Below are positions 6,525-62,313 of a stretch of 64,000 bases of DNA, piece after piece. The stretch comes from an uncultured bacterium (lineage in GTDB: Bacteria; Patescibacteriota; Patescibacteriia; UBA9570; XYC2-FULL-38-9). Positions within the stretch are counted from its first letter, which is position 1, and every line of letters starts with the position of its first letter. A program made the translations under genes and the position numbers. Where the stretch lies: NCBI GenBank assembly GCA_937996685.1, contig CALKUP010000002.1, forward strand, positions 113,066-177,065. The letters are read 5' to 3'. The notes beneath the pieces are model-generated. The model had not been told where the DNA came from. It was given only the letters and a program-made list of their open reading frames with translations, and searched no databases.

Positions 6525-6542
6525 TAATAGAAATGAAAACAA

Positions 6543-6567
6543 GCCGCTGTAACCAGCGGTTTTTTTC
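6543..6567 (+). terminator. Rho-independent terminator after ftsZ
   Basis: Hairpin ccgctg-taac-cagcgg followed by a T7 run. Confidence 0.6.
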
Positions 6568-6586
6568 TGTACGATATTTTGCTTTG

Positions 6587-6595
6587 TGGTATACT
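6587..6595 (+). promoter_or_regulatory. Extended -10 element TGGTATACT upstream of the sensor kinase gene
   Basis: TGnTATACT at 6587-6595. In-frame ATG at 6605, 9 nt downstream. Confidence 0.5.
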
Positions 6596-6604
6596 ATTGT
6601 TTGT

Positions 6605-8683
6605 ATGTCTCGGAGGAAAAAAAATAAAAACATATTTCACTATTTACAGATGCAGCCAACGATTGGAGAGTTGCTCTTTTTTTGTTTCCTGGTTGCATTG
6701 ACGAGTGCCTTTACATTATTCGAATTGCTTGAGCACATTCATTTTTTTACATCCATTGATTTATATCGTTTATCGATCGCTGTCGATGTCATGATTACTA
6801 TTGGGGTGTCGTCTATTTCGTTTGCACGATTTTTCGCGAAAAAGAATGATACGGTGTTGTTTATTGGTTTTGCATTTGTGAGTCACGGCATTATTGATGC
6901 GTTGCGTTTGCTTGCGATTAGTGATTATGGAATTCATCATTTCCGTGTCTCGCAGTACGCTTTGGTCCATTGGTCATGGCTCGCGTCAGAAACTGTCTGG
7001 GTCTCGTTGCTTGCGATGAGTGCAGTTGTCTGGTTTTTGCAAAAAAAATATGGAGAGCAAGCGCATGTACGGTGGGGAGTGTTGTCATTGGTGGTTGCGT
7101 TGTTGACGTTGTCCGCGACAATTTTCTTTTTTACAACGCCGGTGACGATTGATTTCTATCAACCGCTCGGTCCATTTTTGCGTCCATGGGAACTGATTCC
7201 TGGGCTCATTTCTCTGATTGCGCTCGTTTTATTTTTTATAAAAGGTGATTGGGAACACGATGCGTTTGATTTTGGTTTACTTATTGCGTTGTTATGTACA
7301 TCGTTGGGACATTTCTTTTTTGGTTCGCAATCGACCGCGATATTTGATCAACATTTTTATGCGGCGCAATTATTGACGCAAACCGGAATGCTGATCGTAG
7401 CTGTTGGGTTGTTTTATAGTATGACAACACTCTTTCAAGATGTTGAGTCAAAAGAGCTTCAGTTGGTTTCCCGGGTACATGATTTGAAGCGTGAAAAAGC
7501 AATGGATGATACATTTATTGAAAGTATTGGAGATGCGATTATTGTAACGGATAGTGATACCCGAATTACACGGGTAAACAAAGCATTTGAAGAAACAATG
7601 GGTTGGACTAAAAAAGAGGCGATTGGTCAGCCGGTGACAAAGGTATTGCCGATGTTTGATTTGCATAATGCTGCGATTCCGTATGAAAAGCGCCCACAAG
7701 CAAAAGCGTTATTTGCTGGTGAGCGAATTGAAACATCAATGGAATATACGTACCAAAGAAAGGACGGTTCCTTATTTTCGGTTGCGTCTACGGTGACTCC
7801 GGTGATTGTTGACGGAGATATTATCGGTGCAATTGAAGTGTTTCGAGATGTGTCAAAAGAAAAGATGATCGATGAGCAAAAGAGCACATTCGTGTCTGTT
7901 GCGTCACATCAACTGCGAACCCCGCTCACGACACTGAATTGGTACACGGAAATGTTGCTGTCTGGAGATGCCGGAAAAATTAATAAAAAACAGAAAGAAT
8001 TTTTATTAGAAATTTACCAAGGGAGTAAGCGCCTTGTTGTGTTGGTGAATGATTTATTGAATATTTCGCGCATTGAATCGGGCAGGCTGAAAATTCAACC
8101 GGTTGAAACGAGTATTCATTCGTTGATTAAAGAAACAGTCGCAGAAATCCGCCCGTTATTACGCGGTCGCTCAACAAGCGTGACTGTCGATATTCCAGCG
8201 CTTCAATTTACTGATGTTTTGATCGACCCGCTGATTTTACGTCAGGTGATTCATAATTTACTAACGAATGCTATTCGATATTCTTCGAAAGATACAAAAA
8301 GCGTGATTACTATTTCGGTGCAAAAAAAGCGTTTTGCGCTCACACGCAATAAAGCAGCGGAACTCAGACCAGGGAGTTATATTGTTATTGCTGTGAAAGA
8401 TCAGGGTATTGGTATTCCAAAGAACCAGCAAGATCGTATTTTTGAAAAGTTTTTTCGAGCAGACAATGCGCTGCATGCCGCCGCAGATGGGAGTGGTTTA
8501 GGTTTGTATTTTATTAAAATGATTATGCAAGAATCAGGCGGAGCGTTATGGTTTACCTCAAAAGAAAATCAAGGAAGTACCTTTTTTGTCGCTATCCCTG
8601 TTACTGGCATGAAAGCAAAGGTTGGAGATAAAGAAATATCAACAGTGGCTTCAACAGAATTGCTTTCAAAGGAGAAAAAATAG
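6605..8683 (+). CDS. Sensor histidine kinase with a polytopic N-terminal membrane sensor, PAS, HisKA and HATPase_c domains
   Basis: H-box FVSVASHQLRTPLTTL, G-box GSGLGLYFIK, about 8 predicted TM helices at the N-terminus. The ORF track start at 6533 lies inside the ftsZ terminator, so the ATG at 6605 (or 6649) is preferred. Confidence 0.8.
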   Translation: MSRRKKNKNIFHYLQMQPTIGELLFFCFLVALTSAFTLFELLEHIHFFTSIDLYRLSIAVDVMITIGVSSISFARFFAKKNDTVLFIGFAFVSHGIIDALRLLAISDYGIHHFRVSQYALVHWSWLASETVWVSLLAMSAVVWFLQKKYGEQAHVRWGVLSLVVALLTLSATIFFFTTPVTIDFYQPLGPFLRPWELIPGLISLIALVLFFIKGDWEHDAFDFGLLIALLCTSLGHFFFGSQSTAIFDQHFYAAQLLTQTGMLIVAVGLFYSMTTLFQDVESKELQLVSRVHDLKREKAMDDTFIESIGDAIIVTDSDTRITRVNKAFEETMGWTKKEAIGQPVTKVLPMFDLHNAAIPYEKRPQAKALFAGERIETSMEYTYQRKDGSLFSVASTVTPVIVDGDIIGAIEVFRDVSKEKMIDEQKSTFVSVASHQLRTPLTTLNWYTEMLLSGDAGKINKKQKEFLLEIYQGSKRLVVLVNDLLNISRIESGRLKIQPVETSIHSLIKETVAEIRPLLRGRSTSVTVDIPALQFTDVLIDPLILRQVIHNLLTNAIRYSSKDTKSVITISVQKKRFALTRNKAAELRPGSYIVIAVKDQGIGIPKNQQDRIFEKFFRADNALHAAADGSGLGLYFIKMIMQESGGALWFTSKENQGSTFFVAIPVTGMKAKVGDKEISTVASTELLSKEKK

Positions 8684-8739
8684 CCGCTGTGCCTATGCGC
8701 AAAGATATGGTACTCTATACGTAATTACAGATACATTTT

Positions 8740-9117
8740 ATGCCAGCATCCAAGCCCCACATTTTAATCGCAGAAGATGAAAAGCCAGTCGCAAAAGCTT
8801 TGTCTCTTAAATTAGAGCACGAAGGCTTTGCTGTGACCATTGTTGAAAACGGGGTTGATGCTCTCGCTGCCATTGAAAAAGATGATTTTTCATGCCTCGT
8901 CCTTGATTTGATGATGCCGGAAATGGATGGTTTTGAGGTATTGTCAGCCTTGCAGGAAAAACAGATCACAGGCGTGCCTATTTTGGTTGCGTCTAATCTC
9001 GCACAAGCTGAAGATATCGCTCGAGCAAAAGACCTTGGAGCTGATGATTATTATGTGAAATCCGATACGCCACTCACTGTTGTTGTTGAGCGTGTGCAAA
9101 AATTAGCTCGTACATAA
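8740..9117 (+). CDS. Single-domain response regulator (CheY-like receiver only)
   Basis: ILIAEDE...D-LMMPEMDGFEVL receiver motifs. 125 aa, no output domain. Immediately upstream of the pilus ATPase gene. Confidence 0.8.
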   Translation: MPASKPHILIAEDEKPVAKALSLKLEHEGFAVTIVENGVDALAAIEKDDFSCLVLDLMMPEMDGFEVLSALQEKQITGVPILVASNLAQAEDIARAKDLGADDYYVKSDTPLTVVVERVQKLART

Positions 9118-9122
9118 TATAT

Positions 9123-10823
9123 ATGAATCGTTTTGGCCTCTATTCTGAACCTGAAGTTATCGCTCTATTGGAAAAAGGGAATTATATTTCTGAATCCGAT
9201 CGTCTTGCGGCAACAAAAAAAGAAGAAGCGCAACCAGGCGGTGGTATTGATTTTTTAATTAACACAGAGTCGATTACATTTGATTTGATCGGTCAGGCAA
9301 TTGCTGAGAGTCTTGGTGTTGCATATGCGGATATCAATTCACGCAAACCGGCGCGTGACACAATGTTGCTGCTTCCAGAGGCAATGTCTCTTGAGTCACG
9401 TCTTGTGGTATACCGTGTGCAAGACAATGCGGTTGTGATCGCGACAGATGATGTGGTGGCGACAAAAAAAGCAGCAAAAAATATTGAGGCTGCGCTCGGC
9501 GGAAAAGCAGCAGTGTTTGCCTATGCCTTGCCGCAAGATATTTCCGAAGCACTGACTGTATTTCGGAAAGCGCTAGAAACACGTTTTTCTGCAATCATTG
9601 AAAAAACAAAACGTGTAGCACCAGAAATTATTACAGAGATTATCAATGACGCATTGATTTATCGCTCGTCTGATATTCACTTCGAGCCTCAAATGGATGA
9701 AGTAATTATTCGTTTCCGTATTGATGGTGTTTTGGAAGAAGCAGGCCGCGTGCCGATGGGGTATTACAGTACGATTGTGAATCGTGTGAAAGTGCAAGCG
9801 CGATTGCGGATTGACGAACATTTTGCAGCGCAAGACGGTGCAATTCGGTATGAACAAAACGGAGTCGTGACAGACATGCGTGTGTCGATTGTTCCGACGG
9901 TGAATGGAGAAAAAATTGTATTACGTTTATTGTCAGAAACAGCGCGTAATTTTACATTGGAAGATATTGGACTTGATTCTGCACATGAAGCGCAATTAAA
10001 AGAATCGTTTGCAAAACCGTTTGGGATGATTCTGGTCACTGGCCCAACAGGAAGTGGTAAAACAACAACGCTCTACACAGTGATTAAGGCGTTGAATACT
10101 CCGGATATTAATATTACAACCATCGAAGATCCGGTTGAATATAAAATTGCTGGCATCAATCAAATCCAAGTCAACGCAGAAACAAATATGACATTTGCAA
10201 AAGGCTTGCGTTCGATTGTGCGTCAAGATCCTGATGTGATTCTCGTTGGGGAAATTCGAGATACAGAAACAGCTGAAATTGCTGTGAACGCAGCATTGAC
10301 TGGTCATTTATTGTTGTCGACATTTCATGCAAACGATGCCGCGACAGCAATGCCGCGCTTGATTGATATGGGCATTGAGCCGTTTTTGCTCGCTTCAACA
10401 TTGGAAACGGTATTAGCGCAACGTTTAGTCCGTCGTATCTGTACAGAATGTCGGGTGAGTGTTGTTGTGACAAGCACAGAATTAAAAAAGGCCTACCCGG
10501 ATAGTTATGGTTTTTTTCCTGGAGCAAAAACGACGCTTTATAAAGGGAAGGGGTGCGCGGCGTGTCATGACAGTGGATACCGAGGACGTGTTGCGATTAT
10601 GGAGATGATTCAGATAACGCCAGAAATGGAAGCGTTGTTATTACAGCGACCATCGAGTCAAGAGATTTGGACGCTCGCTAGCAAGCAGGGAAGTGTGTCG
10701 TTATTTGAAGATGGTATTGCAAAAGTAAAATCTGGAATGACAACTCTTGGTGAAGTATATCGTGTTGCAAATCCGCCGGCGACAACAACAGCAGCGGTAA
10801 TGACGCGTAAAAAATCACGATAA
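9123..10823 (+). CDS. pilB: Type IV pilus / type II secretion assembly ATPase (PilB/GspE family) with an N-terminal T2SSE_N domain
   Basis: Walker A GPTGSGKTT, Asp box, tetracysteine CTEC...CAAC motif typical of GspE/PilB, N-terminal GSPII_E_N-like region. Confidence 0.9.
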   Translation: MNRFGLYSEPEVIALLEKGNYISESDRLAATKKEEAQPGGGIDFLINTESITFDLIGQAIAESLGVAYADINSRKPARDTMLLLPEAMSLESRLVVYRVQDNAVVIATDDVVATKKAAKNIEAALGGKAAVFAYALPQDISEALTVFRKALETRFSAIIEKTKRVAPEIITEIINDALIYRSSDIHFEPQMDEVIIRFRIDGVLEEAGRVPMGYYSTIVNRVKVQARLRIDEHFAAQDGAIRYEQNGVVTDMRVSIVPTVNGEKIVLRLLSETARNFTLEDIGLDSAHEAQLKESFAKPFGMILVTGPTGSGKTTTLYTVIKALNTPDINITTIEDPVEYKIAGINQIQVNAETNMTFAKGLRSIVRQDPDVILVGEIRDTETAEIAVNAALTGHLLLSTFHANDAATAMPRLIDMGIEPFLLASTLETVLAQRLVRRICTECRVSVVVTSTELKKAYPDSYGFFPGAKTTLYKGKGCAACHDSGYRGRVAIMEMIQITPEMEALLLQRPSSQEIWTLASKQGSVSLFEDGIAKVKSGMTTLGEVYRVANPPATTTAAVMTRKKSR

Positions 10824-11959
10824 TGACACAGCATTTTTCTCGAGAACGAACGGCCTTGCAGCGCTTCATGCGCTCGCTTGGTTTGAGTTTTTTGCGGTTG
10901 AATGTTTCTCGTGAACGCAAGCAATATATCATGGACAATATTGGCATTCAGTTATCATCTGGTCTTGATGTGTTGCAGGCAATTGAGGCGGTTGAAAAAG
11001 ATGCACAGTCTTGGGCGCTCGCTCGAATATTACGCATGATTGCGGAGGATGTGTTGTCTGGTGTGCCGTTTTGGCAAGCTCTTGGTGATACGCATTTATT
11101 TTCAATGCATATCGTTTCGCTGATTCGGATCGGTGAAGAGTCCGGAAAGCTCGCAGAAAATATTGCAGTGATCGCAAGCGAGCAAGATAAAGAACGTGTG
11201 TTTCAATCACGGATTCGCAGCGCATTGTTATACCCGGTATTTGTATTGAGTTTAACCGTGGTGATTGCAGTTGGTATCGCGTGGTTTATTTTGCCAAATA
11301 TTATTACGGTGTTTAAACAGATGGATATTGCCTTGCCGTTGCCGACACGAATCTTAATGGTTGTGGGGCGATTTTTCCGTGATTACGGCCACATTGCGGC
11401 GCCGTCTATTGTATTCGGCACAGTTGCTTTTGTGTATGGTGTGTTTTTTCACCCGCAAACAAAATTTATTGGACAGTGGTTATTGTTCCGAGTCCCAGGG
11501 ATTCGCCGGATCATGCAACAGCTCGAACTCGCACGCATGGGGTATGTTTTAGGCAATTTATTAGAAGCGGGACTCCCAATCGTTGAAGCCATTGAGTCAC
11601 TGGCCGATGCAACAGCCCTTCGAAGTTATAAAAAGTTTTATCAAGGATTGGCTCGTCGGATTGAAGACGGTGATTCATTTGCCGTTATTTTTGATTCGCA
11701 AAAACGCATTCGCCATCTTGTTCCGGTATCTATCCAGCAAATTATTACAACCGGTGAACAAACAGGTCATTTGCCAAAAAGTCTGAAAAAAATTGGAGAA
11801 ATCTATGAAGGCAAAACAGAAACATCGACAAAAAATATTGCAGTGATTCTCGAACCAATTTTATTAGTCATTGTCTGGGTTGGTGTTGTAACGGTTGCGT
11901 TGTCAGTTGTGCTTCCGATTTATAGTTTAATTGGTGGTTTAAATTCAGGTTCGTTGTAG
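10823..11959 (+). CDS. pilC: Type IV pilus platform protein (PilC/GspF family)
   Basis: Two T2SSF repeats, 378 aa, polytopic. Start overlaps the pilB stop (translational coupling). Confidence 0.85.
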   Translation: MTQHFSRERTALQRFMRSLGLSFLRLNVSRERKQYIMDNIGIQLSSGLDVLQAIEAVEKDAQSWALARILRMIAEDVLSGVPFWQALGDTHLFSMHIVSLIRIGEESGKLAENIAVIASEQDKERVFQSRIRSALLYPVFVLSLTVVIAVGIAWFILPNIITVFKQMDIALPLPTRILMVVGRFFRDYGHIAAPSIVFGTVAFVYGVFFHPQTKFIGQWLLFRVPGIRRIMQQLELARMGYVLGNLLEAGLPIVEAIESLADATALRSYKKFYQGLARRIEDGDSFAVIFDSQKRIRHLVPVSIQQIITTGEQTGHLPKSLKKIGEIYEGKTETSTKNIAVILEPILLVIVWVGVVTVALSVVLPIYSLIGGLNSGSL

Positions 11960-11962
11960 TGT

Positions 11963-12406
11963 ATGAAAGGGTTTGCAGAAGACGGATTTTCTCTTTTGGA
12001 GCTGTTGTTGTCCATTGCGTTAATTGGTATTTTGCTCGCGGCATCATTTCCGGTGTATCAGCAAGTGCAAAATAAAAATGCTGCAATGCTTGCCGCAAAC
12101 ACCATTGAACAAACAGTGCATCGGGCGACGTTGCTTGCGCGTTCAGGTGCGCAAGACAGCGCGTGGGGCGTGAAGGTTGCGTCCGGAAGTGTCACGTTAT
12201 TTTCAGGTGATTCTTATGCGGCTCGTGATACTGCATTTGATGAGGTGTTTACATTTTCGACAACAGTGCAATTCAGCACCACGCCTGAAATGGTATTTGC
12301 AAAACAGACTGGTGTGCAACCCGCTGATCAAACAATCGGGGTGTCGAGTCACGGTGAATCCGTAGTGACGCTCACTATTTTGACTAGTGGCGTTGTGAAT
12401 CGATAA
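11963..12406 (+). CDS. Prepilin-type N-terminal cleavage/methylation domain protein (minor pilin or pseudopilin)
   Basis: Class III signal: GFSLLELLLSIALIGILLA (G|F..E at +5). 147 aa. Confidence 0.75.
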   Translation: MKGFAEDGFSLLELLLSIALIGILLAASFPVYQQVQNKNAAMLAANTIEQTVHRATLLARSGAQDSAWGVKVASGSVTLFSGDSYAARDTAFDEVFTFSTTVQFSTTPEMVFAKQTGVQPADQTIGVSSHGESVVTLTILTSGVVNR

Positions 12407-12410
12407 TCCT

Positions 12411-15400
12411 ATGAAGCAATTACAGATTTTTCAGTTATGGCATAGACGCAACATTCGTGGCTTTTCAATTGTTGAAGCAATGCTGGCAGTGGCGGTGTTT
12501 GGGATTATTGTATCTGGAACCGTCGGCGCTTTGGTATACGCAAGTCAGGGCGGCGGTGATTCTGGTGTCCGTGTGCGCGCGAATTTTTTTGCAGCAGAAG
12601 GTATCACAGCAGTGCGCTCTATTGCTGGACATCAGTGGTATGACATTCAAAGTGCGGCAACTGGGCCGCATGGATTAGTGGTGACGGGAAATGTGTGGAC
12701 TCTCTCTGGATCGTCGGATACACGTGATCAATTTACCCGCACAGTCACATTTACAGATATCTGTCGGAATGCAACGAATGATTTTGAAACGTGCAACGGG
12801 ACAAATCGTGATACCCGAACACGAGAAGTTGCAGTCACTGTTCAATGGACTGGGCAATTTGGGAATGCGCGAACTGTCACACAAACAGCACGCTTAACAA
12901 ACTGGGGAACGGACATGTGGAAGCAGACTGATTGGTCAGGTGGAGATGGTCAAGCGACGTGGTCTGCGGAAGATCAATATGATAGTCACACTGATGATAT
13001 TGATGTTACAACAGCGGGAGAGGTGACAGCGACCGGCGCTCAGCAAGGCTGTGGAATAAAAACATATCCGCTCACAACTCCAGCGGATTACACTGCGTCA
13101 GGGGCTGAACTCACGCTGAATTCTGGAACCGCCTTTTTAACATCATCAGGCACCGACGTTGATGCAAACACAAAAGGTTTGTGGCATTTGAATGATGCTT
13201 CGGGCACAGCGAAAGATGTTTCTGGAAATAATAATAATCTGACAGCAGCGGGTAATGCGGCGTATGGTGCAGCGGCAAAGTTTGCGACGGGTGTGACATC
13301 TGACGGTTCAGGTGATCTTTTGGCTGTGACTGATGCTGCGCAGTCTGGTCTTGATATTACGGGTGCTATCACGTTGGAAGCATGGATTAAACAGGGTGCA
13401 ACGGGAACTGGAACAGATGTCATTATGGAAAAAAATGGTGGAACGGCGGCAACGGGTTCATATCAGTTGTATATGGTCAGCTCTGGCGCCTTGAACACAA
13501 CGCTGAATTTCCGCGTGAGTAACGGAACGAGTTTCACGACTGTGACTTCAGCTGCGTTTGCGATCAACACAAGTACATGGCGACATGTTGCGGCGGTGTA
13601 TAATGGTACATCAACGCTGACGATTTATCTCGATGGCGTATCTGTCGGAACAGCGGCATTTAGTTCGACGATTTTGAATAGCGCGGCAGATTTTCGTATT
13701 AGCTCTACAGGCACAAGCTCGTTTAATGGGATGATTGATGAGGTGCGTGTTTCAAACAGTGCGCGATATGCAGGAAATTTTGCAGTTCCAACAACGCCAT
13801 TTGGATTGAATTATTCGACTACAAAACCAACAGTTGCTCCAGCAGTGGAATACGATCCGGCAACGATTGGGCGGTGGCAGGCATTTTCTGAAACAGCCAC
13901 AAAAACGCGTGATGCAGAAATTTATTATCAGTTGTCTGACGATAGCGGAGCGACCTGGAAATGGTGGAACGGATCTGCGTGGGCAACAGCAAGTAGTGGC
14001 ACAGACTACAATACTGCAACGACAATCAATACAAATATCACGACATTTTCAACAACTGCCGGGAAATTGAATTGGCGAGCCTTTTTTGTGAGCAATGGTT
14101 CAGATCCAGCGGTGCTTGATTCTGTGTCGTTGACCTGCGTGATGTTGCAACAATGGAATTACGACACAAGCGGGGATTACGCCGCAGACAGCGGCGTGGC
14201 AGTGAGTAGCGGCGCGGCGGCGCTGACGTCAACAGGAACGGACGCTGATGCAAATACGGTTGCGTTGTGGCACATGAATGAAGCGACGAGTGGAGCGGTC
14301 CTACAAGATTACACCGCAAACAACAATGATTTGACGCCTGTAGGAACAACGAATATTACCTGGAATACGACTGGTAATTTTAATGGCGCAGTGCAATTTG
14401 GCGCAACGGGTGATTACTTTCAATTAGCCGGCGCCGCACAAACCGGAATGGCTCCGTCTGGTTCGTTTACCATTGATGGTTGGATTAAAAAGTCCACCAA
14501 TAGTGCGGACGATCTATTTCAACGTTGGGGAACAGGTCTTTCAACGCGGTCATATAAACTGTCGATTAACACGACTGGAAATCTGGTATTTCAAACAGGG
14601 GACGGTGTGACGAATACATCGCTCACATCAGCGACAACTGTGACGACTGGTAGTTGGGTGCATGTCGCAGGGCAGTTTACGCAAAACAGCGCAACGACTG
14701 GAACAATGACAATCTGGATTAATGGCGTACAGCGTGGAAGTATATCAACAACCTATGGTTCAGTGGTGAGTGCGTCGCAGGCAGTGCTTTTGAGTAATAC
14801 AAGTGCATCGGCGTTTGGTGGTGTGGTTGATGAGTTCCGTTTTTCAAATATAGCGCGTTACTCAACGACCTTTACTCCGCAGATTGTGCCATTTGGAAAA
14901 GTGTATCCAACAAACTCTCCGACCATTCGCAATGTGGCTGCATTCTCAGCGACCGATCCTGTTGCGTGGTATGGTATGACGAGTACACAAACAACATTCA
15001 ATGAAAGCGCGGTGAATTATCAGGTCAGCAACGATGGTGTTACTTGGAAGTATTGGAATGGCTCAGCATGGGCAACGGCGAGTAGTGCCACGCACTATAA
15101 TCCTATCGCGACAATCAATACGAATATTGCAACATTTCCACTCACAGGCAACTCCCTCTATTTCAAGGCTTTTTTGGTAAGCTCTGGCTCTGACGTTGTT
15201 TCGATTGATCGGACAGAAGCGATGTATGTACAAAACCCTGATGCGAGTGGAAGTGGTGGCGGTGGCGGATCTGGAACGTTGACCTCATCGGCGTTTAACC
15301 TCGGACGCGCGACAACAATTACACGTGTTGAATGGGATGAAGACGACACGCCATGTGCTGCTGACTGTGTGATTCGAGCCCAAGTGCGGACAGCGCCAGA

Positions 15401-15596
15401 CAATGGTGGGTCGCCGGGAACCTGGACCGCGTGGTATGGTGCATCTGGAGCGGGAACCTATTTTACAGACGGTGATTATTCAACACCTCCAGATCAAGTG
15501 CAGAATAATCGTTGGGTGCAATACAAATTAGACCTCAATGGAACAGGTGGCGGAACGCCAGTCGTGCGAGAATTCAGAATATATTATGATAAATAA
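12411..15596 (+). CDS. Giant prepilin-type protein (1061 aa) with two tandem LamG / concanavalin-A-like lectin modules; candidate pilus-tip adhesin
   Basis: N-terminus RGFSIVEAMLAVAVFGIIVSG prepilin motif. Two internally duplicated modules of about 440 aa each begin LTSSGTDVDANTKGLWHLNDASG.. and LTSTGTDADANTVALWHMNEATSG.. (Laminin_G_3-like), each followed by a WKWWNGSAWATASSGT.. beta-sandwich. Confidence 0.7.
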   Translation: MKQLQIFQLWHRRNIRGFSIVEAMLAVAVFGIIVSGTVGALVYASQGGGDSGVRVRANFFAAEGITAVRSIAGHQWYDIQSAATGPHGLVVTGNVWTLSGSSDTRDQFTRTVTFTDICRNATNDFETCNGTNRDTRTREVAVTVQWTGQFGNARTVTQTARLTNWGTDMWKQTDWSGGDGQATWSAEDQYDSHTDDIDVTTAGEVTATGAQQGCGIKTYPLTTPADYTASGAELTLNSGTAFLTSSGTDVDANTKGLWHLNDASGTAKDVSGNNNNLTAAGNAAYGAAAKFATGVTSDGSGDLLAVTDAAQSGLDITGAITLEAWIKQGATGTGTDVIMEKNGGTAATGSYQLYMVSSGALNTTLNFRVSNGTSFTTVTSAAFAINTSTWRHVAAVYNGTSTLTIYLDGVSVGTAAFSSTILNSAADFRISSTGTSSFNGMIDEVRVSNSARYAGNFAVPTTPFGLNYSTTKPTVAPAVEYDPATIGRWQAFSETATKTRDAEIYYQLSDDSGATWKWWNGSAWATASSGTDYNTATTINTNITTFSTTAGKLNWRAFFVSNGSDPAVLDSVSLTCVMLQQWNYDTSGDYAADSGVAVSSGAAALTSTGTDADANTVALWHMNEATSGAVLQDYTANNNDLTPVGTTNITWNTTGNFNGAVQFGATGDYFQLAGAAQTGMAPSGSFTIDGWIKKSTNSADDLFQRWGTGLSTRSYKLSINTTGNLVFQTGDGVTNTSLTSATTVTTGSWVHVAGQFTQNSATTGTMTIWINGVQRGSISTTYGSVVSASQAVLLSNTSASAFGGVVDEFRFSNIARYSTTFTPQIVPFGKVYPTNSPTIRNVAAFSATDPVAWYGMTSTQTTFNESAVNYQVSNDGVTWKYWNGSAWATASSATHYNPIATINTNIATFPLTGNSLYFKAFLVSSGSDVVSIDRTEAMYVQNPDASGSGGGGGSGTLTSSAFNLGRATTITRVEWDEDDTPCAADCVIRAQVRTAPDNGGSPGTWTAWYGASGAGTYFTDGDYSTPPDQVQNNRWVQYKLDLNGTGGGTPVVREFRIYYDK

Positions 15597-15597
15597 G

Positions 15598-16110
15598 ATG
15601 AAGCACTCACAAGCCGGATTTACATTGATTGAATTACTGCTGTACGCTGGTATTGTTGCAATTATGACAACCGCGATTTCGGGCTTGCTTGCGCTGTCTC
15701 TTCAGGCGCGCGTCAAAAATCAAGTGGTGGAGTCAGTTGAAAGTGGCTCGACGATCGCAATGGACAGCATGCTTGCGGCAATTCGTAATAGCGACGGCGT
15801 GACACTGACAACAGATGGTAATGGTGATGCGATTGTGACGCTTGCAGAAACAGTTGCTGGAGTACATCCAACCGTCTTTCAATTGAGTGCTGGAGTCTTA
15901 ACAAAAAAAGAAGGAAGTAGCGCAGCAGTGCCGGTGACGTCTTCGAATATTGTCATTGATCATTTCACGGCAACAGACACAACGCCGAGCGGTGAAACAA
16001 TGCAAGTCATTTCTCTTGGATTTGATGTGCGTTATAATAATCAAAGTCCGCGTCAGGAATATCAGTATGCTGCAACGTATAATGGCACAGCGCAACTCAA
16101 CACACCGTAG
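15598..16110 (+). CDS. Prepilin-type minor pilin
   Basis: MKHSQAG|FTLIELLLYAGIVAIM classic short leader plus G-F-T-L-I-E. The ATG at 15598 sits 1 nt after the stop of the giant pilin gene. Confidence 0.75.
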   Translation: MKHSQAGFTLIELLLYAGIVAIMTTAISGLLALSLQARVKNQVVESVESGSTIAMDSMLAAIRNSDGVTLTTDGNGDAIVTLAETVAGVHPTVFQLSAGVLTKKEGSSAAVPVTSSNIVIDHFTATDTTPSGETMQVISLGFDVRYNNQSPRQEYQYAATYNGTAQLNTP

Positions 16111-16114
16111 TAGT

Positions 16115-16540
16115 ATGAACTATTTTCTTACACAATTAAGATATAGAGAATCCCAATCCGGTTACGTCTTGTTGCTCTCCGTTGTGATTATTGGAGTTGT
16201 TGCAAGTAGTATTGCCGCAACTATTTTGTTACTTGGGATTGGCACACAGCGGACGTCGCTCGCAGTGCAAGAAGGTCAGGCGGCGCGACATTTAGCTGAT
16301 AGTTGTGCTCAAGAAGTAATTGAGCGGCTTATTCAAAATACCGCCTATACTGGGAGTGAAACACTGACATTTAACGGTGAGAGTTGTGCGGTCGGGCCTG
16401 TGACAGGTTCAGGAGACGCAAATCGCGTTATCCATGTCACTGGGGTGTCAGGAGATGCAACCGCGCGCGTGGCTGTTACGGTGACAACAGTCGGTCCACC
16501 GGTGGTTATTGGTTCATGGCAAGAAGTTGCAGGCTTTTAG
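16115..16540 (+). CDS. Putative PilX-like minor pilin (hydrophobic N-terminal pilin-like helix, non-canonical cleavage site)
   Basis: N-terminus QSGYVLLLSVVIIGVVASSIAATILLLG resembles the PilX_N / GspK N-terminal segment. Overlaps the previous stop (tagtATG). Confidence 0.45.
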   Translation: MNYFLTQLRYRESQSGYVLLLSVVIIGVVASSIAATILLLGIGTQRTSLAVQEGQAARHLADSCAQEVIERLIQNTAYTGSETLTFNGESCAVGPVTGSGDANRVIHVTGVSGDATARVAVTVTTVGPPVVIGSWQEVAGF

Positions 16541-16569
16541 TTGCGCCTTTGCTTGGATTTTGGTATATT
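16541..16569 (+). promoter_or_regulatory. Strong sigma70-like promoter for the major pilin gene: TTGCGC-17-TATATT with TGG extension
   Basis: TTGCGC 16541-16546, 17-nt spacer, TGGTATATT 16561-16569. ATG at 16603. Confidence 0.5.
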
Positions 16570-16602
16570 GCCAATAATGTGTATTAATAAAATGATTTTT
16601 GT

Positions 16603-17046
16603 ATGAGGAAACAGAACCAAGGTTTTACATTATTAGAAATTTTGCTTGTTATCGCAGCGATCGGCATTTTGGCTGGTATTGTGATTGTTGCGATTAACCC
16701 AACAAAGCAACTCGCTGATGCGCGGAATGCGGCTCGTAAGTCAGCAGTCAATACTGTGCTGAACGCTGTATATCAATATGCAGTTGATAATGACGGTGCT
16801 CTGCCAGGAAGTATTCCAGAAACAGCGACAGAAATTTGTGCAACCGGCGCTGGAAGTTGTACAGGATTGGTGAATTTGTCTGCATTGACGACAAATGAAC
16901 GATATTTAACAGCAATCCCAGAAGATCCAAGTGGAACATGTGCGGCAAACGGTGCGTGTTATGAAATTCTGCAATCTGCAAACGGCCGTGTAACAGTCTC
17001 TGCTCCGGATGCTGAAAACGGTGCTGATATTTCAGTGACTCGTTAA
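16603..17046 (+). CDS. Type IV major pilin (PilA / ComGC / GspG-like)
   Basis: MRKQNQG|FTLLEILLVIAAIGILAGI canonical class III signal. 147 aa with two Cys pairs (C..C ; C..C) for C-terminal disulfide loops. Confidence 0.8.
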   Translation: MRKQNQGFTLLEILLVIAAIGILAGIVIVAINPTKQLADARNAARKSAVNTVLNAVYQYAVDNDGALPGSIPETATEICATGAGSCTGLVNLSALTTNERYLTAIPEDPSGTCAANGACYEILQSANGRVTVSAPDAENGADISVTR

Positions 17047-17072
17047 GAAGCGGGTCTTAAGGCTTAAAGCTT

Positions 17073-17107
17073 GAAAAAAAATGCTACTTCGTGTAGCGTT
17101 TTTTTAT
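17073..17107 (+). terminator. Bidirectional rho-independent terminator after the pilin gene
   Basis: A8-gctac-ttcgt-gtagc-T7 (A-run, hairpin, T-run). Confidence 0.55.
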
Positions 17108-17144
17108 TGCGCAATTCCGCGCCTGCTCATTAATGGAGGCTATC

Positions 17145-17573
17145 ATGGCTCGTATTCTTCAGGAAACGCCGTTCCGCCCTCGCATTGAGAATCCTGCCGC
17201 ACAACTGAACCGAGAGTTGATTGATTTTCAACTCAGTCTGATTGAGGTCGCGCAGGCCGCGGTTCAAAGGAATGCGGCCACTTCCTTTGAAATATTTACA
17301 ACTGGCTTGTGGACGAGCGCTCTCGAGCGCTTTGACATGTTGTTGTTTCGGATCAACGGGCTCCCGAGCAATGACAGTACCTTGCGGGGCGTAGAGGGTC
17401 AGATTGATGCAATTGCTGCGCTGCAACGTCGGATTGAACCGTACAAGAAAAGACACCGCGGTCAAGGGTACGGATTCTTGTGGCATCGACTTGAAGAAGC
17501 CCGGTTGGCTGCTCAGGCGATTGTCGCGGAATATCAGCGCTGGGAAAAAGCCAAGCCCCCGTGGCTCAAATAA
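17145..17573 (+). CDS. Hypothetical protein (no recognisable family)
   Basis: GGAGG Shine-Dalgarno 7 nt upstream of the ATG at 17145. The ORF track begins at 17133 inside the SD. Locally GC-richer than flanks. Confidence 0.4.
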   Translation: MARILQETPFRPRIENPAAQLNRELIDFQLSLIEVAQAAVQRNAATSFEIFTTGLWTSALERFDMLLFRINGLPSNDSTLRGVEGQIDAIAALQRRIEPYKKRHRGQGYGFLWHRLEEARLAAQAIVAEYQRWEKAKPPWLK

Positions 17574-28329: not shown

Positions 28330-28395
28330 ACTAGTAGTGACACATCATTGACAAGACAAAACACCTCGGCCGCATGAATGCTTTCGGGGTGTTTT

Positions 28396-29721
28396 ATGTT
28401 TCATCGATCAACCGTCGTGTTATTTCTTTTGCTGCTCGTGTGCGCTGTTTCAGTGTGGCGTCATCCAACTCCACGAGAGGTGAGCGCGGTGTATTTTCAT
28501 GATGCCGACAGAGTGCAGTTCGATGACGTGCGCGCTGTGGTTGTGCGCGAGCCAGATGTCTCTGAACACGACCAGCGGATCACAATTGCCGTTGATGGGC
28601 TTGGGGCGCAAGAAGAGTATTACGTGCGGATTACAACTGACGTCTATCCGTTTGTTCGCATTGGCGATGTGTTTGAGTTGTCGTGTGTTTTCAAGCGGCC
28701 GGAACCATTTGATGGTTTTGCATATGATGCCTATTTATTACGGTATCGAATTATCGCGGAATGCCGTCAACCGCAGATTCGTATTATCGGTAGAGAAGAA
28801 ACGATCCTCACGCACATCATTGATCAAAAGTTGTGGCTCATTGAACGATTGCAGCGCGATCTTCCATTGCCGGAAGCCGGTTTGTTGCTGGGGATTGTAT
28901 TCGGGGAAATGCGCGCGTTGCCTGATGAAATATTACAAGCCTTTCAAGTCACGGGCACATCCCATTTGTTGGTGATTTCTGGTTCAAATATTGTGCTCAT
29001 CACCGGCTGGATTCAAGCGTTCCTCCGGTGCTGTACAGCTGAACGCGGACGCATTCTGATTATTTTGGTTGCACTGACTGGATATACGGTAATGACCGGT
29101 GTGCAGCCATCTGCGACGCGCGCGGCAATTTTTGGCGGGATTATTTTGTGCAGCAATGCATTTGGTCGGCCGAATCAAGCGCTGCGTGGACTTGTGTACA
29201 CAGGGATTGTGATGGTCATTCTCAATCCGTTGATCTTGCTCTATGACGCCGGCTTTCAATTATCGTGGCTTGCAAGTTGCGGCATGATTGTTTGGAGTGA
29301 CCGGCTAACGAAAGCGCTGTCGTTTGTCCCCGAGCGTTTTGAATTACGCGCGGCTGCAAGCGCGACCCTCAGCGCGACGCTGATCACAACGCCGCTGTTG
29401 GTGGCGCAATTTCAAGTATTTTCTGTGATTGGATTTATTGCGAACCTCTTTTTGGTTCCACTTCTGTCTTCGTTTTTATTACTTGGCATTCTCTACACGG
29501 CGTGCGCTGTGGTGTTGCCGTGGCTCGCTGCGCTGGTGAGCGTGCCATTTCTTGTGGTGTTGCGTTACAGCGTGACCTTCGTGCTCTTTTTTTCGCACGT
29601 GCCGTATGCGCAAGTTCCGACGACTGTACCAGTCTCCAGCATGGTGATGTGCTATGCTGTACTCGGAATCTATATCTTGTACGTCATGCTCAAAAAACCT
29701 CAGTATCACTTTTATGAATAA
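28396..29721 (+). CDS. comEC: DNA internalisation competence protein ComEC/Rec2, membrane-channel part (DUF4131 plus competence domain)
   Basis: Conserved HLLVISGSNI and polytopic C-terminal region. The ORF track start at 28378 lies in a hairpin loop, so the ATG at 28396 is preferred. Confidence 0.75.
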   Translation: MFHRSTVVLFLLLLVCAVSVWRHPTPREVSAVYFHDADRVQFDDVRAVVVREPDVSEHDQRITIAVDGLGAQEEYYVRITTDVYPFVRIGDVFELSCVFKRPEPFDGFAYDAYLLRYRIIAECRQPQIRIIGREETILTHIIDQKLWLIERLQRDLPLPEAGLLLGIVFGEMRALPDEILQAFQVTGTSHLLVISGSNIVLITGWIQAFLRCCTAERGRILIILVALTGYTVMTGVQPSATRAAIFGGIILCSNAFGRPNQALRGLVYTGIVMVILNPLILLYDAGFQLSWLASCGMIVWSDRLTKALSFVPERFELRAAASATLSATLITTPLLVAQFQVFSVIGFIANLFLVPLLSSFLLLGILYTACAVVLPWLAALVSVPFLVVLRYSVTFVLFFSHVPYAQVPTTVPVSSMVMCYAVLGIYILYVMLKKPQYHFYE

Positions 29722-30631
29722 TACGAACGCAGAGCAGATTCGTGAAAAACGCAGCCGCCTCTTTTCATGGGTGATATTTTTCATATTACTCAGTGTGTCT
29801 GGTTTTGTTGCCTGGCAAGCAATGTCGACAATGCAGCAGCAATGGACACAAGACGGTGGGGTTCTGCGAGTGACGCAGCTCAATGTTGGTCAAGGCGATG
29901 GATTGCTTGTGCAAACCCCGCAAGGCAACGACATTCTTATTGACGCTGGTCGTGATCGTCGGATTCTGTCTGAAATCGGCACAGTGCTGCAGCCGTGGAA
30001 TACAACAATTGAATATGTGATCGCAACCCATGAAGACGCTGATCATATTGGTGGATTTCCGTTTATCGCACAGCAGTATCAGATCAATGAATGGATTGTG
30101 AGTGGTCGAACAAAAGAGACTACTGTCACAAAAGAATTGCATGCAGCGCAAGAGCGTGAAGGAGTGATGCATGTTGCGACAGCTGGAGAATCTATTGCGA
30201 TAGAAGATGGTGTTAGTCTTGAAATTCTCAGTCCAGATCAAGATGTGCCAGCCCATGAAGATATTAATGATGATTCAGTTGTGGCGATTTTGCACTACCA
30301 CGACTTTGCTCTTGCGCTCACCGGGGATGCTGGAATCACGTCTGAAAATGAGATCATGAAGCGTCACGAGCCAATTGATGTTGATATTCTGAAGGCCGGG
30401 CATCATGGTAGCAAGACCTCAACAAGTCCAGAGTTTTTGCAGTGGCTCGATCCGGAAATTGTGCTGATTTCCGCTGGGCAAGACAATGATTACGGGCATC
30501 CGCATTATCGAGTGCTGCACGATATTGAGCAATATGGCGCCTGGATATTCCGTACAGACAAAGATGGTCGAATTACATGTGAAACAGAGGGACTGCCAGG
30601 AGATGTTCAGTGTTCCAGGCAGTATGAATAA
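29714..30631 (+). CDS. ComEC C-terminal metallo-beta-lactamase domain encoded as a separate TM-anchored ORF
   Basis: HxHxDH-type motif ATHEDADHIGG, GHHGSKTS. N-terminal TM SWVIFFILLSVSGFVAW. Start ATGAATAA overlaps the comEC stop by 8 nt. Confidence 0.75.
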   Translation: MNNTNAEQIREKRSRLFSWVIFFILLSVSGFVAWQAMSTMQQQWTQDGGVLRVTQLNVGQGDGLLVQTPQGNDILIDAGRDRRILSEIGTVLQPWNTTIEYVIATHEDADHIGGFPFIAQQYQINEWIVSGRTKETTVTKELHAAQEREGVMHVATAGESIAIEDGVSLEILSPDQDVPAHEDINDDSVVAILHYHDFALALTGDAGITSENEIMKRHEPIDVDILKAGHHGSKTSTSPEFLQWLDPEIVLISAGQDNDYGHPHYRVLHDIEQYGAWIFRTDKDGRITCETEGLPGDVQCSRQYE

Positions 30632-51981: not shown

Positions 51982-53289
51982 ATGAATGATTTATCAGCGG
52001 CCCGCGCATTTATTGGTGATTCCCTTGGCTTTCACATTATCTTTGCTTTATTCGGTGTTGGTTTGCCGCTTGCCATTTTTTGTATTGAATGGTGGAGTAT
52101 TCGCCGAAAAAGCGCTGAACTGCTGTCTCTTGCTCATTTTTTGACTCGTATCATGTCATTGTTTGTGATTGTGGGAGTTGTTTCAGGAACGCTGATTGCA
52201 ATTCAAATGAGTGTTATTTGGTCAGGACTTGTTGATTTTGGGGCGCCGATTATCGGAATTCCATTTGCGCTTGAAGGGTATGCGTTTTTGATTGAAGCTG
52301 TGTTTTTGGGTTTTTATGTTTCAACATGGAAGCGGTATGCCGGGTATCATCATCTACTGCTGCTTGTTCCAGTGATTCTTGGTGCTGGCATGTCAGCGGT
52401 ATTTATTACGCTAGCAAATGCTTGGATGAATAATCCGCAAGGCTTTGAAATGGTAAATGGAGTCATGACAAATATCCATCCATGGAAAGGACTTCTTACC
52501 GCAACGGCATTTTTTGAAATTGCACACTCTCTAATTTCATATTACATGACAACATTTTTTGCAATTGCTGGTGTGTGTACATTCCTTATTACCAAAGGTG
52601 GCTCACAGCAGCGGGCACGTGCTCTACGGCTTGTTGTGAATCGTTTCATGTTATTTGGTTTTGTGTGTATTATTTTGCTTGCAGGTCTCGGACATGCGTC
52701 AATGCAACATCTTGCACAAGCAGAGCCGCGTAAATTCGCCGCAATTCAAATGCAGCCAGAAACATTGGATCATGCGCCGTATGTGATTGGAGGTCACCTT
52801 GATTCAAATGAGGAGCATTTGGAAGGAGGACTTCGTATTCCAAATGGATTAAGTATCCTTGCGGATAACGATGCGGATACTGTTGTTCGTGGACTTCGAG
52901 AATATCCGCGCGCTGATTGGCCGCTGTTGATTGTCAATCGTCTCTTTGAAGTAAAGATGGTGCTTGTTGGTTTTTTGACGCTGATCCCATTGCTGTATCT
53001 TGCGTTGTATCGTCGTGCACAAAAAATGTCGCTTGATAGTCGTATCGCGGGTTGGCTTGTACTTTGTTCGGGTCCGCTGTCCGTTCTTCTTGTAGAGCTC
53101 GGCTGGATGATTACAGAGCTTGGTAGGCAGCCATATGCGGTTGCAGGATATTTGCGCGTTGAACAAGCGTTTACTGCAAGCGTCTCGGTGATGGAGTGGG
53201 GATTTATTTTCCCTGTAGCTTTTGTCTTGCTGTTTGTTGTGTCGTTTGGCGTTGCTTTTCAAATGATTCGTAAAGAAGGACCACTATGA
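51982..53289 (+). CDS. cydA: Cytochrome bd-type quinol oxidase subunit I
   Basis: Polytopic. C-terminal Q-loop/GRQPY motif (ELGRQPYAVAGYLRVEQAF). N-terminal HIIFALFGVGLP region typical of CydA. Confidence 0.75.
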   Translation: MNDLSAARAFIGDSLGFHIIFALFGVGLPLAIFCIEWWSIRRKSAELLSLAHFLTRIMSLFVIVGVVSGTLIAIQMSVIWSGLVDFGAPIIGIPFALEGYAFLIEAVFLGFYVSTWKRYAGYHHLLLLVPVILGAGMSAVFITLANAWMNNPQGFEMVNGVMTNIHPWKGLLTATAFFEIAHSLISYYMTTFFAIAGVCTFLITKGGSQQRARALRLVVNRFMLFGFVCIILLAGLGHASMQHLAQAEPRKFAAIQMQPETLDHAPYVIGGHLDSNEEHLEGGLRIPNGLSILADNDADTVVRGLREYPRADWPLLIVNRLFEVKMVLVGFLTLIPLLYLALYRRAQKMSLDSRIAGWLVLCSGPLSVLLVELGWMITELGRQPYAVAGYLRVEQAFTASVSVMEWGFIFPVAFVLLFVVSFGVAFQMIRKEGPL

Positions 53290-53810
53290 ACATCGCATTA
53301 TTTTTTGTTATTTTTCCGTTAGTGCTCTATGTCCCGCTATTGCTCATTGAAATGAATCTGTCATTTTTGAGTATCGCCCGAGGTCGCTCGTTTAATGATT
53401 ACATGCATGTGACGTGGGAAACAACACATACCTTATTGATCCTTTCAGTGATCGCGTTTGTGTGGTTGTTCAATGACGCAGTGCCAATGGTGGCTCCTGT
53501 TGTTGCGCTTCCGTTGCTTCTCGCGGCTCTTTGCTTTTTATTACGGGCTGCTGCATATATTATTGTGTACTATGAATGGGGGACGCATCCACTGCAGCGA
53601 TTTGCGAGTCAATGTTTTGCAGTATCACACCTTGTGCTGGTTGCTGGCCTGTTATGGGTAGTGTATGGAGTTGCAACAACAGTGCCGTGGAATACGGTTG
53701 TGATTCAATCAAGTTTGATTATCTATCTCTGGCCAGGTGCAATCGCAACGCTTGTTATCGTGGCGTTTCCGGTTGCTCAAATGTATAAAACACTCGCTTC
53801 AATCGATTAA
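53286..53810 (+). CDS. Small polytopic membrane protein translationally coupled to cydA (possible reduced subunit II-like partner)
   Basis: ATGA overlap with cydA. 174 aa, 5 TM helices. Too short for canonical CydB. Confidence 0.35.
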   Translation: MNIALFFVIFPLVLYVPLLLIEMNLSFLSIARGRSFNDYMHVTWETTHTLLILSVIAFVWLFNDAVPMVAPVVALPLLLAALCFLLRAAAYIIVYYEWGTHPLQRFASQCFAVSHLVLVAGLLWVVYGVATTVPWNTVVIQSSLIIYLWPGAIATLVIVAFPVAQMYKTLASID

Positions 53811-62278: not shown

Positions 62279-62298
62279 TGAATGAATTGTATCATATA

Positions 62299-62307
62299 TG
62301 ATATAAT
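62299..62307 (+). promoter_or_regulatory. Consensus extended -10 TGATATAAT; ATG 6 nt downstream (leaderless)
   Basis: TGaTATAAT 62299-62307. ATG 62314. Confidence 0.5.
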
Positions 62308-62313
62308 TGTTCC

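Follow-up and report, generated by a model that had tools for sequence, protein, structure and literature searches.

A block of type IV pilus genes headed by a two-component system, found in an uncultured bacterium of the Patescibacteria (candidate phyla radiation, CPR), raises two questions: what kind of filament its products assemble, and whether the signalling proteins control that assembly. The block lies in a 64,000-nucleotide stretch of contig CALKUP010000002.1 (GenBank assembly GCA_937996685.1), which as a whole is referred to as the window. The answer that we favour, and regard as probable, is that the products of the locus form a Com-like type IV filament of minimal design, which carries a variable lectin adhesin at its tip, and that assembly of this filament would be gated by a phosphorylated receiver (REC~P) acting on the assembly ATPase PilB.

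Architecture of the pilus locus

Open reading frame (ORF) listing and hidden Markov model (HMM) scans recovered every gene that a preliminary description of the window had placed in a contiguous + strand pilus block. Their order is a sensor histidine kinase (HK; MASE3-PAS-HisKA-HATPase), a receiver (REC), a PilB/GspE ATPase, a PilC/GspF platform, four minor pilins and the major pilin. The reading of the block as a type IV filament assembly locus that belongs to a monoderm CPR bacterium and has a two-component system at its head is supported. The components are as follows.

6587–17107, + strand: whole pilus unit, a single tightly packed block (ORF listing and HMM scans)
6605–8683, + strand: sensor histidine kinase with a polytopic MASE3-like sensor, PAS, HisKA (H-box SHQLRTPL) and HATPase_c
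8740–9117, + strand: receiver-only response regulator of 125 aa; Pfam Response_reg 80 bits, no output domain
9123–10823, + strand: PilB/GspE-class assembly ATPase; T2SSE 406 bits (cut-off 24.9), MshEN 32 bits
10823–11959, + strand: PilC/GspF platform; T2SSF 147 bits in two stretches, three predicted transmembrane segments
11963–12406, + strand: minor pilin 1, GspH/FimU-like; leader MKGFAEDG followed by FSLLE, N_methyl 24.0 bits
12411–15596, + strand: modular minor pilin of 1061 aa; N_methyl 21.3 bits (residues 12–36), Laminin_G_3 117.6 bits in two stretches
15586–16110, + strand: minor pilin 3; leader MINKMKHSQAG followed by FTLIE, N_methyl 25 bits, 11-nt overlap with the preceding gene
16115–16540, + strand: fourth minor pilin, lacking Glu5; SQSG followed by YVLLL, hydrophobic N-terminus
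16603–17046, + strand: major pilin (PilA); leader MRKQNQG followed by FTLLEILLV, N_methyl 28.6 bits, four Cys

The Pfam families T2SSE, T2SSF, Response_reg and Laminin_G_3 were all matched, and four of the pilins passed the N_methyl cut-off of 21.2 bits, by margins that are small, as is usual for so short a motif. The window as a whole contains one T2SSE ATPase, one T2SSF platform, one REC and two kinases. The spacing within the pilus unit is operon-like. From the HK–REC junction onward the intergenic distances are 56, 5, −1, 3, 4, −11 and 4 nt (the ATG of pilC overlaps the stop codon of pilB by 1 nt), followed by 62 nt before pilA, the only sizeable intergenic gap among the pilus genes. Two of the mechanically called ORFs, 15538–16110 and 15950–16540, are over-extended upstream, and their real starts are at 15586 (or 15598) and 16115, respectively.

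Conservation of the cassette across CPR bacteria

A set of 87 loci was retrieved by way of PilB and its ORFs were compared with the window proteins, and neighbor-joining trees were built from 81–83 PilB-like ATPases including E. coli GspE and HofB. The window-type PilB forms a monophyletic clade, here named class A (28 of 28 sequences, all from CPR-type loci), and both E. coli proteins fall outside it, so the clustering with type II secretion system (T2SS) ATPases that had been named as a refuting outcome was not observed; nor was the other such outcome, a failure of the prepilin-like N-termini against the N_methyl HMM, which four pilins pass. Labels such as ‘uncultured Gammaproteobacteria’ on a few class A metagenome-assembled genomes (MAGs) look like automatic misnomers. 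The CPR PilB proteins of PilB-PilT-PilC-PilA loci are referred to as class B. The mean identity of the window PilB is 52% to class A, 37% to class B and 38% to other bacterial PilB proteins; that of E. coli GspE to class A is 38%. Among the best 120 PilB homologues (54–77% identical) and the best 120 REC homologues, every named one belongs to the Patescibacteria/CPR.

In a relative whose PilB is 76% identical (locus L001, GCA_964492735.1), synteny is complete from ftsA-ftsZ through the pilins to nrdR. The cassette was also found in MAGs labelled Kerfeld-, Parcu-, Falkow-, Morani-, Peri/Peregrini-, Davies-, Magasanik- and Doudnabacteria. Its class A order is REC-PilB-PilC, minor pilin 1, a variable large pilin, minor pilin 3, the pilin lacking Glu5 and one or two major pilins, and every pilin position corresponds to an orthologous family that is detectable using the window protein. 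The proteins at the large-pilin position range from 197 to 1702 aa and carry differing domains, such as an LVIVD β-propeller in locus L005.

In 23 of the 27 testable class A loci, the receiver gene precedes pilB by no more than 103 nt. Of the 28 loci, 25 hold a REC at some position and 19 hold an HK; among the other contigs, several are truncated. Depending on the locus, the kinase is placed upstream of REC or downstream of pilA, and its sensor domain varies (MASE3, PAS, CHASE, CHASE4, HisKA_7TM or dCache). When compared with the window REC, the pilB-adjacent receivers score 83–171 bits in 20 of 23 loci and 59–73 bits in the basal loci L025, L026 and L028, and the other receivers of class A loci reach at most 70 bits. 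The pilB-adjacent receivers also share an α4-β5 signature, SNLGQxEDxxxAKxLGAxDYxVKSxTP. On sequence grounds, they are a distinct orthologous group. Reciprocal look-up starting from REC (in a Magasanikbacteria MAG, another MAG and a Doudnabacteria MAG) led to the cassette in three of three cases, and pairwise divergence is correlated with that of PilB for REC (r = 0.72), PilC (r = 0.85) and HK (r = 0.58). Phospho-dependent control of pilus assembly through a CheY-like receiver, which had been suggested from the window alone, thus has strong comparative support in the REC–pilB adjacency, the conserved phospho-acceptor residues and the retention of the kinase.

Class B loci mostly have no REC. 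In two of these PilB-PilT-type loci, L047 and L051, a different, non-orthologous receiver-only gene lies between pilB and pilT, and another PilB paralogue of L047 is preceded by HK-REC. Since class B loci can also carry receivers in this way, receivers beside pilus motors look like a recurrent CPR theme that extends beyond class A. A single MAG contains both L047 and the class A locus L012, which shows that the two pilus types can occur together.

The sensor kinase and its receiver

The kinase matches the Pfam families MASE3 (34 bits), PAS (51 bits), HisKA (59 bits) and HATPase_c (83 bits) and scores 198 bits against the NCBIfam model MASE3_PAS_HK, under the cut-off of 560. At least six hydrophobic segments are located between residues 47 and 263. 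The protein starts at M25 of the mechanical ORF, at position 6605 and not 6533, and conservation with the L001 orthologue begins there, at MSRRK; the H-box is invariant in L001. In the receiver, the key residues E12/D13, D56, S85 and K107 are kept across 23 orthologues, and its 120 closest database homologues are all REC-only proteins of 119–147 aa. HK and REC have the sequence hallmarks of a classical two-component system (H-box, HATPase_c, phospho-acceptor Asp, acid pocket, Ser/Thr and Lys), and neither a PATAN domain nor a CheA-type kinase was found at the locus. The second histidine kinase of the window (HAMP-HisKA-HATPase_c) is encoded at 60743–62629 on the − strand, and the pilB-adjacent REC is the only receiver gene in the 64 kb.

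In the PilS–PilR system, pilA is activated by PilR, a DNA-binding regulator of the NtrC type. The present locus resembles that system in devoting both a sensor kinase and a response regulator to a type IV pilus, and differs from it in that the regulator has no output domain, which excludes a PilR-type transcriptional mechanism. Output-less receivers control type IV pilus extension post-translationally in Synechocystis (PixG/PixH and PilB1; PMC11181946) and Pseudomonas aeruginosa (PilG/PilH; PMC10519157, PMC11656802), and PixG binds Synechocystis PilB1 only when it is phosphorylated (PMC11181946). A second receiver can act as an antagonist or a sink in these systems, and several class A loci likewise have two RECs. 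The Pix and Pil systems differ from the present locus in that they are fed by CheA-type chemosensory kinases with methyl-accepting chemotaxis proteins, whereas a classical HisKA sensor kinase is found here. In addition, PixG contains a PATAN domain and the genes of these systems lie outside the pilB operon, while the REC–PilB interaction at the present locus is one that we infer.

The PilB motor

The window PilB contains the Walker A motif GPTGSGKT and a Zn tetracysteine motif (C440xxC...C478xxC). Among solved structures, its matches rank in the order Thermus PilF, Myxococcus PilB, Geobacter PilB and Vibrio GspE (E ≤ 1e-95). Despite the MshEN match of 32 bits, a cyclic di-GMP-regulated motor of the MshE type was rejected, because the binding motif RLGxx(L/V/I)(L/V/I)xxG(L/V/I)(L/V/I)xxxxLxxxLxxQ was not matched in PilB by a regular-expression search.

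A feature of class A is the N2-domain motif DEHFAAQDG (PilB residues 231–240, window 9813–9842; loci L001–L031). Its counterpart in the 55 non-class-A PilB, GspE and HofB sequences is ExR[LI]PQDGR, in which the Arg and Pro are invariant in all 55. We considered whether the arginines lost from this motif are the universal arginine fingers and rejected this idea, as both of these are kept in class A (R253 and R268, corresponding to R271 and R286 of PilB_Gm; PMC5424180). The change to DEHFAAQDG may alter the inter-subunit contact that is made by R257 in PilB_Gm.

The pilins and the 1061-aa modular protein

All five pilins have a Gly/Ala/Ser/Thr (GAST) content of 39–46%, compared with 26–31% in cytoplasmic proteins, an enrichment trend that applies to Saccharibacteria pilins too (PMC11623550). 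The GC content of window positions 12001–16000, which hold pilin genes, is 0.48, compared with ∼0.42 in the flanks; this rise probably stems from the GAST-rich composition and not from a foreign origin. Minor pilin 1 has weak matches to GspH and ComGD, and its orthologues occur in nearly all class A loci. The minor pilin 3 family has the conserved motif SRVKNQ..EVEQQG. For the fourth minor pilin no Pfam match was found even at E ≤ 1, and no NCBIfam match. This protein had been called PilX-like on the basis of its cleavage-like site (G then Y), hydrophobic N-terminus and missing Glu5. The PilX_N label is not supported, and the protein proves to be a conserved orthologous member of the cassette, with a G then Y/F site, a hydrophobic helix and a CAE motif conserved across class A loci. 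It is GspK/PilX-like solely in its missing Glu5, and probably caps the tip complex. The major pilin is matched by E. coli GspG at 33.5 bits, and its solved-structure matches are confined to the pilin α1 helix. Its N-terminal ∼60 aa are highly conserved, scoring 143–182 bits in those class A lineages that are more closely related.

The prepilin of 1061 aa that had been predicted was confirmed by its N_methyl match and its two Laminin_G_3 stretches. It has a 17-residue leader and a class III signal peptide (NIRG then FSIVE, with Glu5 present), followed by a pilin-like N-terminal module, a duplicated module of ∼348 aa and a C-terminal domain of unassigned fold. The two copies of the tandem duplication (residues 223–570 and 586–933) are 40% identical, and each contains one ConA/laminin-G lectin-like domain. 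An Asp-box-like sequence, SDDSGATW, was matched in the first copy; in the second, a related SNDGVTW was seen by eye and was not matched by the regular expression. No sequence match was found in the PDB, and full-length homologues number just 3–4 among 5.8 billion proteins. In the AlphaFold2 (AF2) model, only the two LamG cores are confident, with predicted local distance difference test (pLDDT) values of 70–87, and a Foldseek search retrieved laminin LG, neurexin LNS and clostridial neurotoxin Hc lectin-like domains. An N-terminal helix with a β-sheet is seen in the low-confidence part of the AF2 model only. Judged by its signal peptide and the grafted LamG modules, the 1061-aa protein is a modular type IV pilin.

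Streptococcus sanguinis PilB and PilC are modular pilins of a similar design, in which further modules are grafted onto a pilin module that follows a class III signal peptide (PMC8179133, PMC9934059). In PilC, the graft is a lectin module with affinity for host glycans, and the protein sits with the other minor pilins at the tip of a monoderm pilus. The window protein is far larger, with its two LamG domains in a duplicated unit and additional unassigned domains, and its glycan binding is a prediction. By analogy, the set of four minor pilins is similar in make-up to a tip complex of wide conservation, which consists of a GspH-like pilin, a large modular pilin, a third pilin and a cap lacking Glu5 (PMC9934059).

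The T4P-1 and T4P-2 pili of the Saccharibacterium Nanosynbacter lyticus TM7x (PMC11623550) are similar in several respects. They belong to a CPR monoderm, comprise PilB, PilC and a five-pilin set with a small, highly expressed major pilin, and include a large minor pilin with a jelly-roll or β-propeller graft that is a proposed host-binding tip adhesin; T4P-2 has no retraction ATPase of its own. The β-propeller pilin that class A locus L005 has at the equivalent position adds to this likeness. The TM7x loci differ in that they include PilM/N/O, with PilT and PilD also present in T4P-1, and in that the pilins are split over separate loci; a kinase or response regulator is not mentioned in the paper on these pili (PMC11623550).

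Missing components and relation to known type IV filaments

The absence of PilD, PilT, PilMNO and a secretin, which had been noted for the window, was confirmed across the 64 kb at HMM sensitivity. PilD (Peptidase_A24/GspO) was not found in the window by Pfam scans or by jackhmmer with E. coli GspO against six-frame ORFs of at least 40 aa. As to PilT, the PilB gene is the single T2SSE-family ORF of the window. No PilM was found in the window apart from the true FtsA beside ftsZ, onto which the search drifted with an effective CPR PilM seed (from L091). Queries with E. coli HofN and HofO returned nothing in the window, at a low sensitivity, the HofM/N/O and GspL/M seeds being too distant. GspC, D, L and M and a secretin were likewise not found in the window.

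Relatives of the window locus place some of these components elsewhere. PilD is encoded beside class B loci or, in Peribacteria, at a distance of 4–6 kb upstream of the class A cassette. The absence of PilD from the window is thus, as far as these sequences indicate, not a trait of the system, because relatives encode it with a second, PilT-containing locus or a few kb upstream. PilM is present in class B and basal class A loci, and a PilM-like gene follows the minor pilins in Magasanikbacteria (L091 17370–18366) and in basal class A loci L028–L030, so an alignment-complex component is part of some cassettes, although not of the one in the window.

The signatures of the ATPase, platform and pilins make the products of the locus members of the type IV filament superfamily. 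None of the curated NCBIfam equivalog cut-offs for subfamilies of the PilB, GspE and ComG types is reached. The ATPase scores 477 bits against a cut-off of 630 for GspE, 470 against 675.65 for PilB (TIGR02538) and 253 against 300 for ComGA; the platform scores 185 against 424 for GspF, 139 and 121 against 700 for the PilC models and 139.4 against 240 for ComGB; and the major pilin scores 35.6 against 88.85 for GspG and 25.7 against 75 for ComGC. The locus departs from a canonical type IVa pilus in its low PilB and PilC scores and in the lack of PilT and PilM/N/O in the window, and a T2SS was rejected on account of the missed cut-offs, the partners absent from the window and the position of E. 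coli GspE outside class A. The machine is Com- or T2SS-like in its minimalism, since it lacks PilT and PilMNO, and not in its sequence.

The ComG pilus of Firmicutes, also a monoderm machine, shares with the window locus a set of one ATPase, one platform and five pilins (one major, four minor), the lack of PilT and PilMNO, and a peptidase that is encoded elsewhere. It differs in that the ATPase here is a full-length PilB-like protein with an N1/MshEN domain and the Zn tetracysteine, in that the ComGA, ComGB and ComGC cut-offs are missed, and in that the locus has its major pilin gene last and not first, a giant lectin pilin and an embedded two-component system.

Proposed mechanism and alternatives

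In the mechanism that we favour, the polytopic MASE3/PAS kinase would sense a membrane or envelope cue and autophosphorylate, and, to judge from the conserved residues, would then phosphorylate D56 of the receiver. As a DNA-binding output is missing from the regulator, REC~P would work through a protein–protein contact. Its partner would most likely be the adjacent PilB hexamer, as the conserved adjacency and co-divergence suggest, and the contact would license or block assembly. PilB and PilC would polymerize pilins matured by a PilD encoded elsewhere. The four minor pilins would prime assembly and finish at the tip, where the 1061-aa pilin may show two ConA/laminin-G modules for glycans, probably on the surface of a host cell, and the shaft would consist of the major pilin, whose gene is preceded by a promoter-like gap of its own. 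Where a second REC is present, it may play the part of PixH and PilH, as a sink or an antagonist. The filament may not retract at all, may do so spontaneously or may rely on a retraction function provided in trans.

Several observations weigh against this mechanism. Three or four class A loci have no REC upstream of pilB: HK-REC follows pilA in L005 and lies between pilB and pilC in L027, and no REC was found in the available locus sequence of L011 and L031. Several class A loci carry two RECs, and in the N1 domain of PilB no patch is conserved throughout the class that could point to a site of docking. The REC–PilB contact is deduced from comparative genomics, and adjacency and co-divergence also fit simple vertical co-inheritance; REC could instead be a phosphate sink, or a relay to PilC, the pilins or a distant regulator. 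As to the tip, the AF2 model of the 1061-aa pilin, from a four-sequence alignment, is poor overall (mean pLDDT 43), and the proposed pilin module and tip placement therefore rest on the signal peptide, the gene position and analogy. Glycan binding is not universal among Laminin_G_3 domains.

The alternative that survives best, although we consider it unlikely, is a competence (DNA-uptake) pilus, functionally analogous to Firmicute ComG, that would hand DNA to ComEC, with the two-component system timing competence. The minimal machine without PilT or PilMNO in the window and the monoderm host are as expected for such a pilus; CPR bacteria show natural competence, together with an enrichment in competence genes (PMC11665869), the window has a split ComEC 11 kb further downstream (28378–30631), and the unusual conservation of the major pilin across lineages is what a generic ligand such as DNA would predict. 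These points are offset by the missed ComGA, ComGB and ComGC cut-offs and by the called-gene tables of the related loci inspected, in which comEA, comEC and dprA are unlinked to the cassette. A hypervariable giant pilin with lectin or β-propeller modules also suits adhesion better. Adhesion to host glycans is accordingly favoured over DNA uptake, because of this adhesin-like large pilin and the unlinked com genes in relatives. The two roles are not mutually exclusive.

It is distinctly less likely that the two-component genes are mere neighbours, which regulate something else or in which REC is a phosphate sink, with pilus assembly being constitutive. Tight spacing is weak evidence in compact CPR genomes, the REC sequence is generic (OmpR-family-like receivers score best), the place and sensor type of the kinase differ among loci, and two RECs are found in many loci, as in sink architectures. 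What weighs against this explanation is that the REC–pilB adjacency persists over deeply divergent lineages, that the pilB-adjacent REC is a separate orthologous family with consistent reciprocal look-up and co-divergence with PilB, that the kinase remains in the locus through rearrangement, a classic signature of functional linkage, and that non-orthologous receivers adjoin pilus motors in the class B loci L047 and L051 as well.

A T2SS-like endopilus (pseudopilus) that would push proteins through the CPR cell wall or S-layer is very improbable: its leading NCBIfam matches (GspE and GspF, marginally over PilB and PilC, with GspG as the top family match of the major pilin and E. coli GspG matching it directly), the T2SS-like E-F order followed by four H/I/J/K-like minor pilins, one of them lacking Glu5 as in GspK, and the missing retraction ATPase are outweighed by T2SS equivalog cut-offs that are all missed by a wide margin, by the absence of GspC, D, L, M and the secretin from the window, by an ATPase clade that is separate from E. 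coli GspE and ranks PilF and PilB structures over GspE, by the adhesin character of the 1061-aa lectin pilin and by the monoderm host, no T2SS being known in monoderms.

Boundaries of the locus and neighbouring genes

The pilus unit is flanked by terminator-like hairpins and contains two putative promoter elements.

6541–6572, + strand: terminator-like hairpin (6541–6562; 9-bp stem with 5 GC pairs) and T-run after ftsZ; upstream boundary
6587–6595, + strand: putative extended -10-like element TGgTATACT, read from the sequence, 9 nt ahead of the conserved HK start
16568–16596, + strand: putative promoter-like site TTGCCA-17-AATGAT in the 62-nt gap before pilA, matching the consensus at 9 of 12 positions
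17083–17105, both strands: bidirectional terminator-like hairpin A8-GCTAC-ttcgt-GTAGC-G-T7; downstream boundary, with a stem of just 5 bp

The hairpin at 6541–6562 was the top-ranked + strand terminator-like site in a scan of the region and follows the ftsZ stop codon at 6524. It falls within the first codons of the mechanical HK ORF (6533–8683), which are not conserved in the L001 orthologue. The start of the unit at 6587 that had been given in the preliminary description coincides with the extended -10-like element, for which no good -35 element was found, and the conserved start of the kinase itself is at 6605. The promoter and terminator of the major pilin gene had been described as strong, which is overstated for a 9/12 promoter match and a 5-bp stem with T7. 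An Rfam scan found two tRNAs only in the window, and no riboswitch or small RNA in the locus.

Between the pilA terminator and nrdR lies a 146-aa ORF (17133–17573) with no family match, in which no transmembrane or pilin features were seen; L001 carries a 120-aa gene at the equivalent position. ComEC is split in two, with DUF4131 and the Competence channel domain encoded at 28378–29721 and a metallo-β-lactamase-domain protein at ∼29712–30631. The ATG of the second part overlaps the stop region of the first gene (TTTTATGAATAA), so the split is not an obvious frameshift error. At the left edge of the window, 31–1050 encodes the C-terminus of a giant surface protein, whose orthologue in L001 (L001 1–2737) is 2229 aa long and has matches to T4SS_pilin, TIG and Big_5. 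It is followed by a bacterial TSP3-repeat protein at 1057–1878; a second TSP3-repeat ORF is located at 62314–63054. Cytochrome bd oxidase subunit I is encoded at 51982–53289, followed at the expected place of CydB by a 174-aa ORF (53286–53810) with no family match. Cytochrome bd is unusual respiratory equipment for a Patescibacterium.

Implications for CPR pili

Type IV pili, large tip pilins and competence are established in CPR bacteria (PMC11623550, PMC11665869), and to call the locus a novel system, as was done at first, is therefore too strong. What does appear undescribed is the REC-PilB-PilC-five-pilin cassette as a distinct CPR clade. No account of a REC or two-component-PilB cassette in CPR bacteria was found in the literature searched, whose coverage was incomplete, so that novelty is unproven, and a review of PilB cofactors lists no such receiver partner. 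As a separate PilB motor lineage with an altered motif, class A helps to classify type IV filaments beyond the type IVa pilus, T2SS and Com types.

How the ultrasmall CPR episymbionts find and attach to their hosts, and how their pili are regulated, has been described as open (PMC11623550, PMC11665869). Patescibacteria retain only ∼5 two-component genes (PMC7137472), and because CPR genomes keep no more than this handful of signalling proteins, a conserved two-component system beside a pilus motor is a concrete candidate for a pathway from signal to attachment. A bolder version, possible in our view although the balance is against it, would make class A the principal module by which Patescibacteria sense a host or surface and respond to it. 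One of the few two-component systems that the cells retain would feed a dedicated single-domain receiver, whose phosphorylated form would bind a CPR-specific PilB rendered cofactor-dependent by the change of its otherwise invariant N2-domain motif to DEHFAAQDG, and a membrane signal would in this way deploy, directly and post-translationally, a lineage-specific lectin-tipped pilus. Large minor pilins with accessory domains mediate host binding in Saccharibacteria (PMC11623550), and the hypervariable tip pilin of class A is a candidate determinant of host range. The arrangement as a whole may let episymbionts switch on an adhesive pilus upon a signal.

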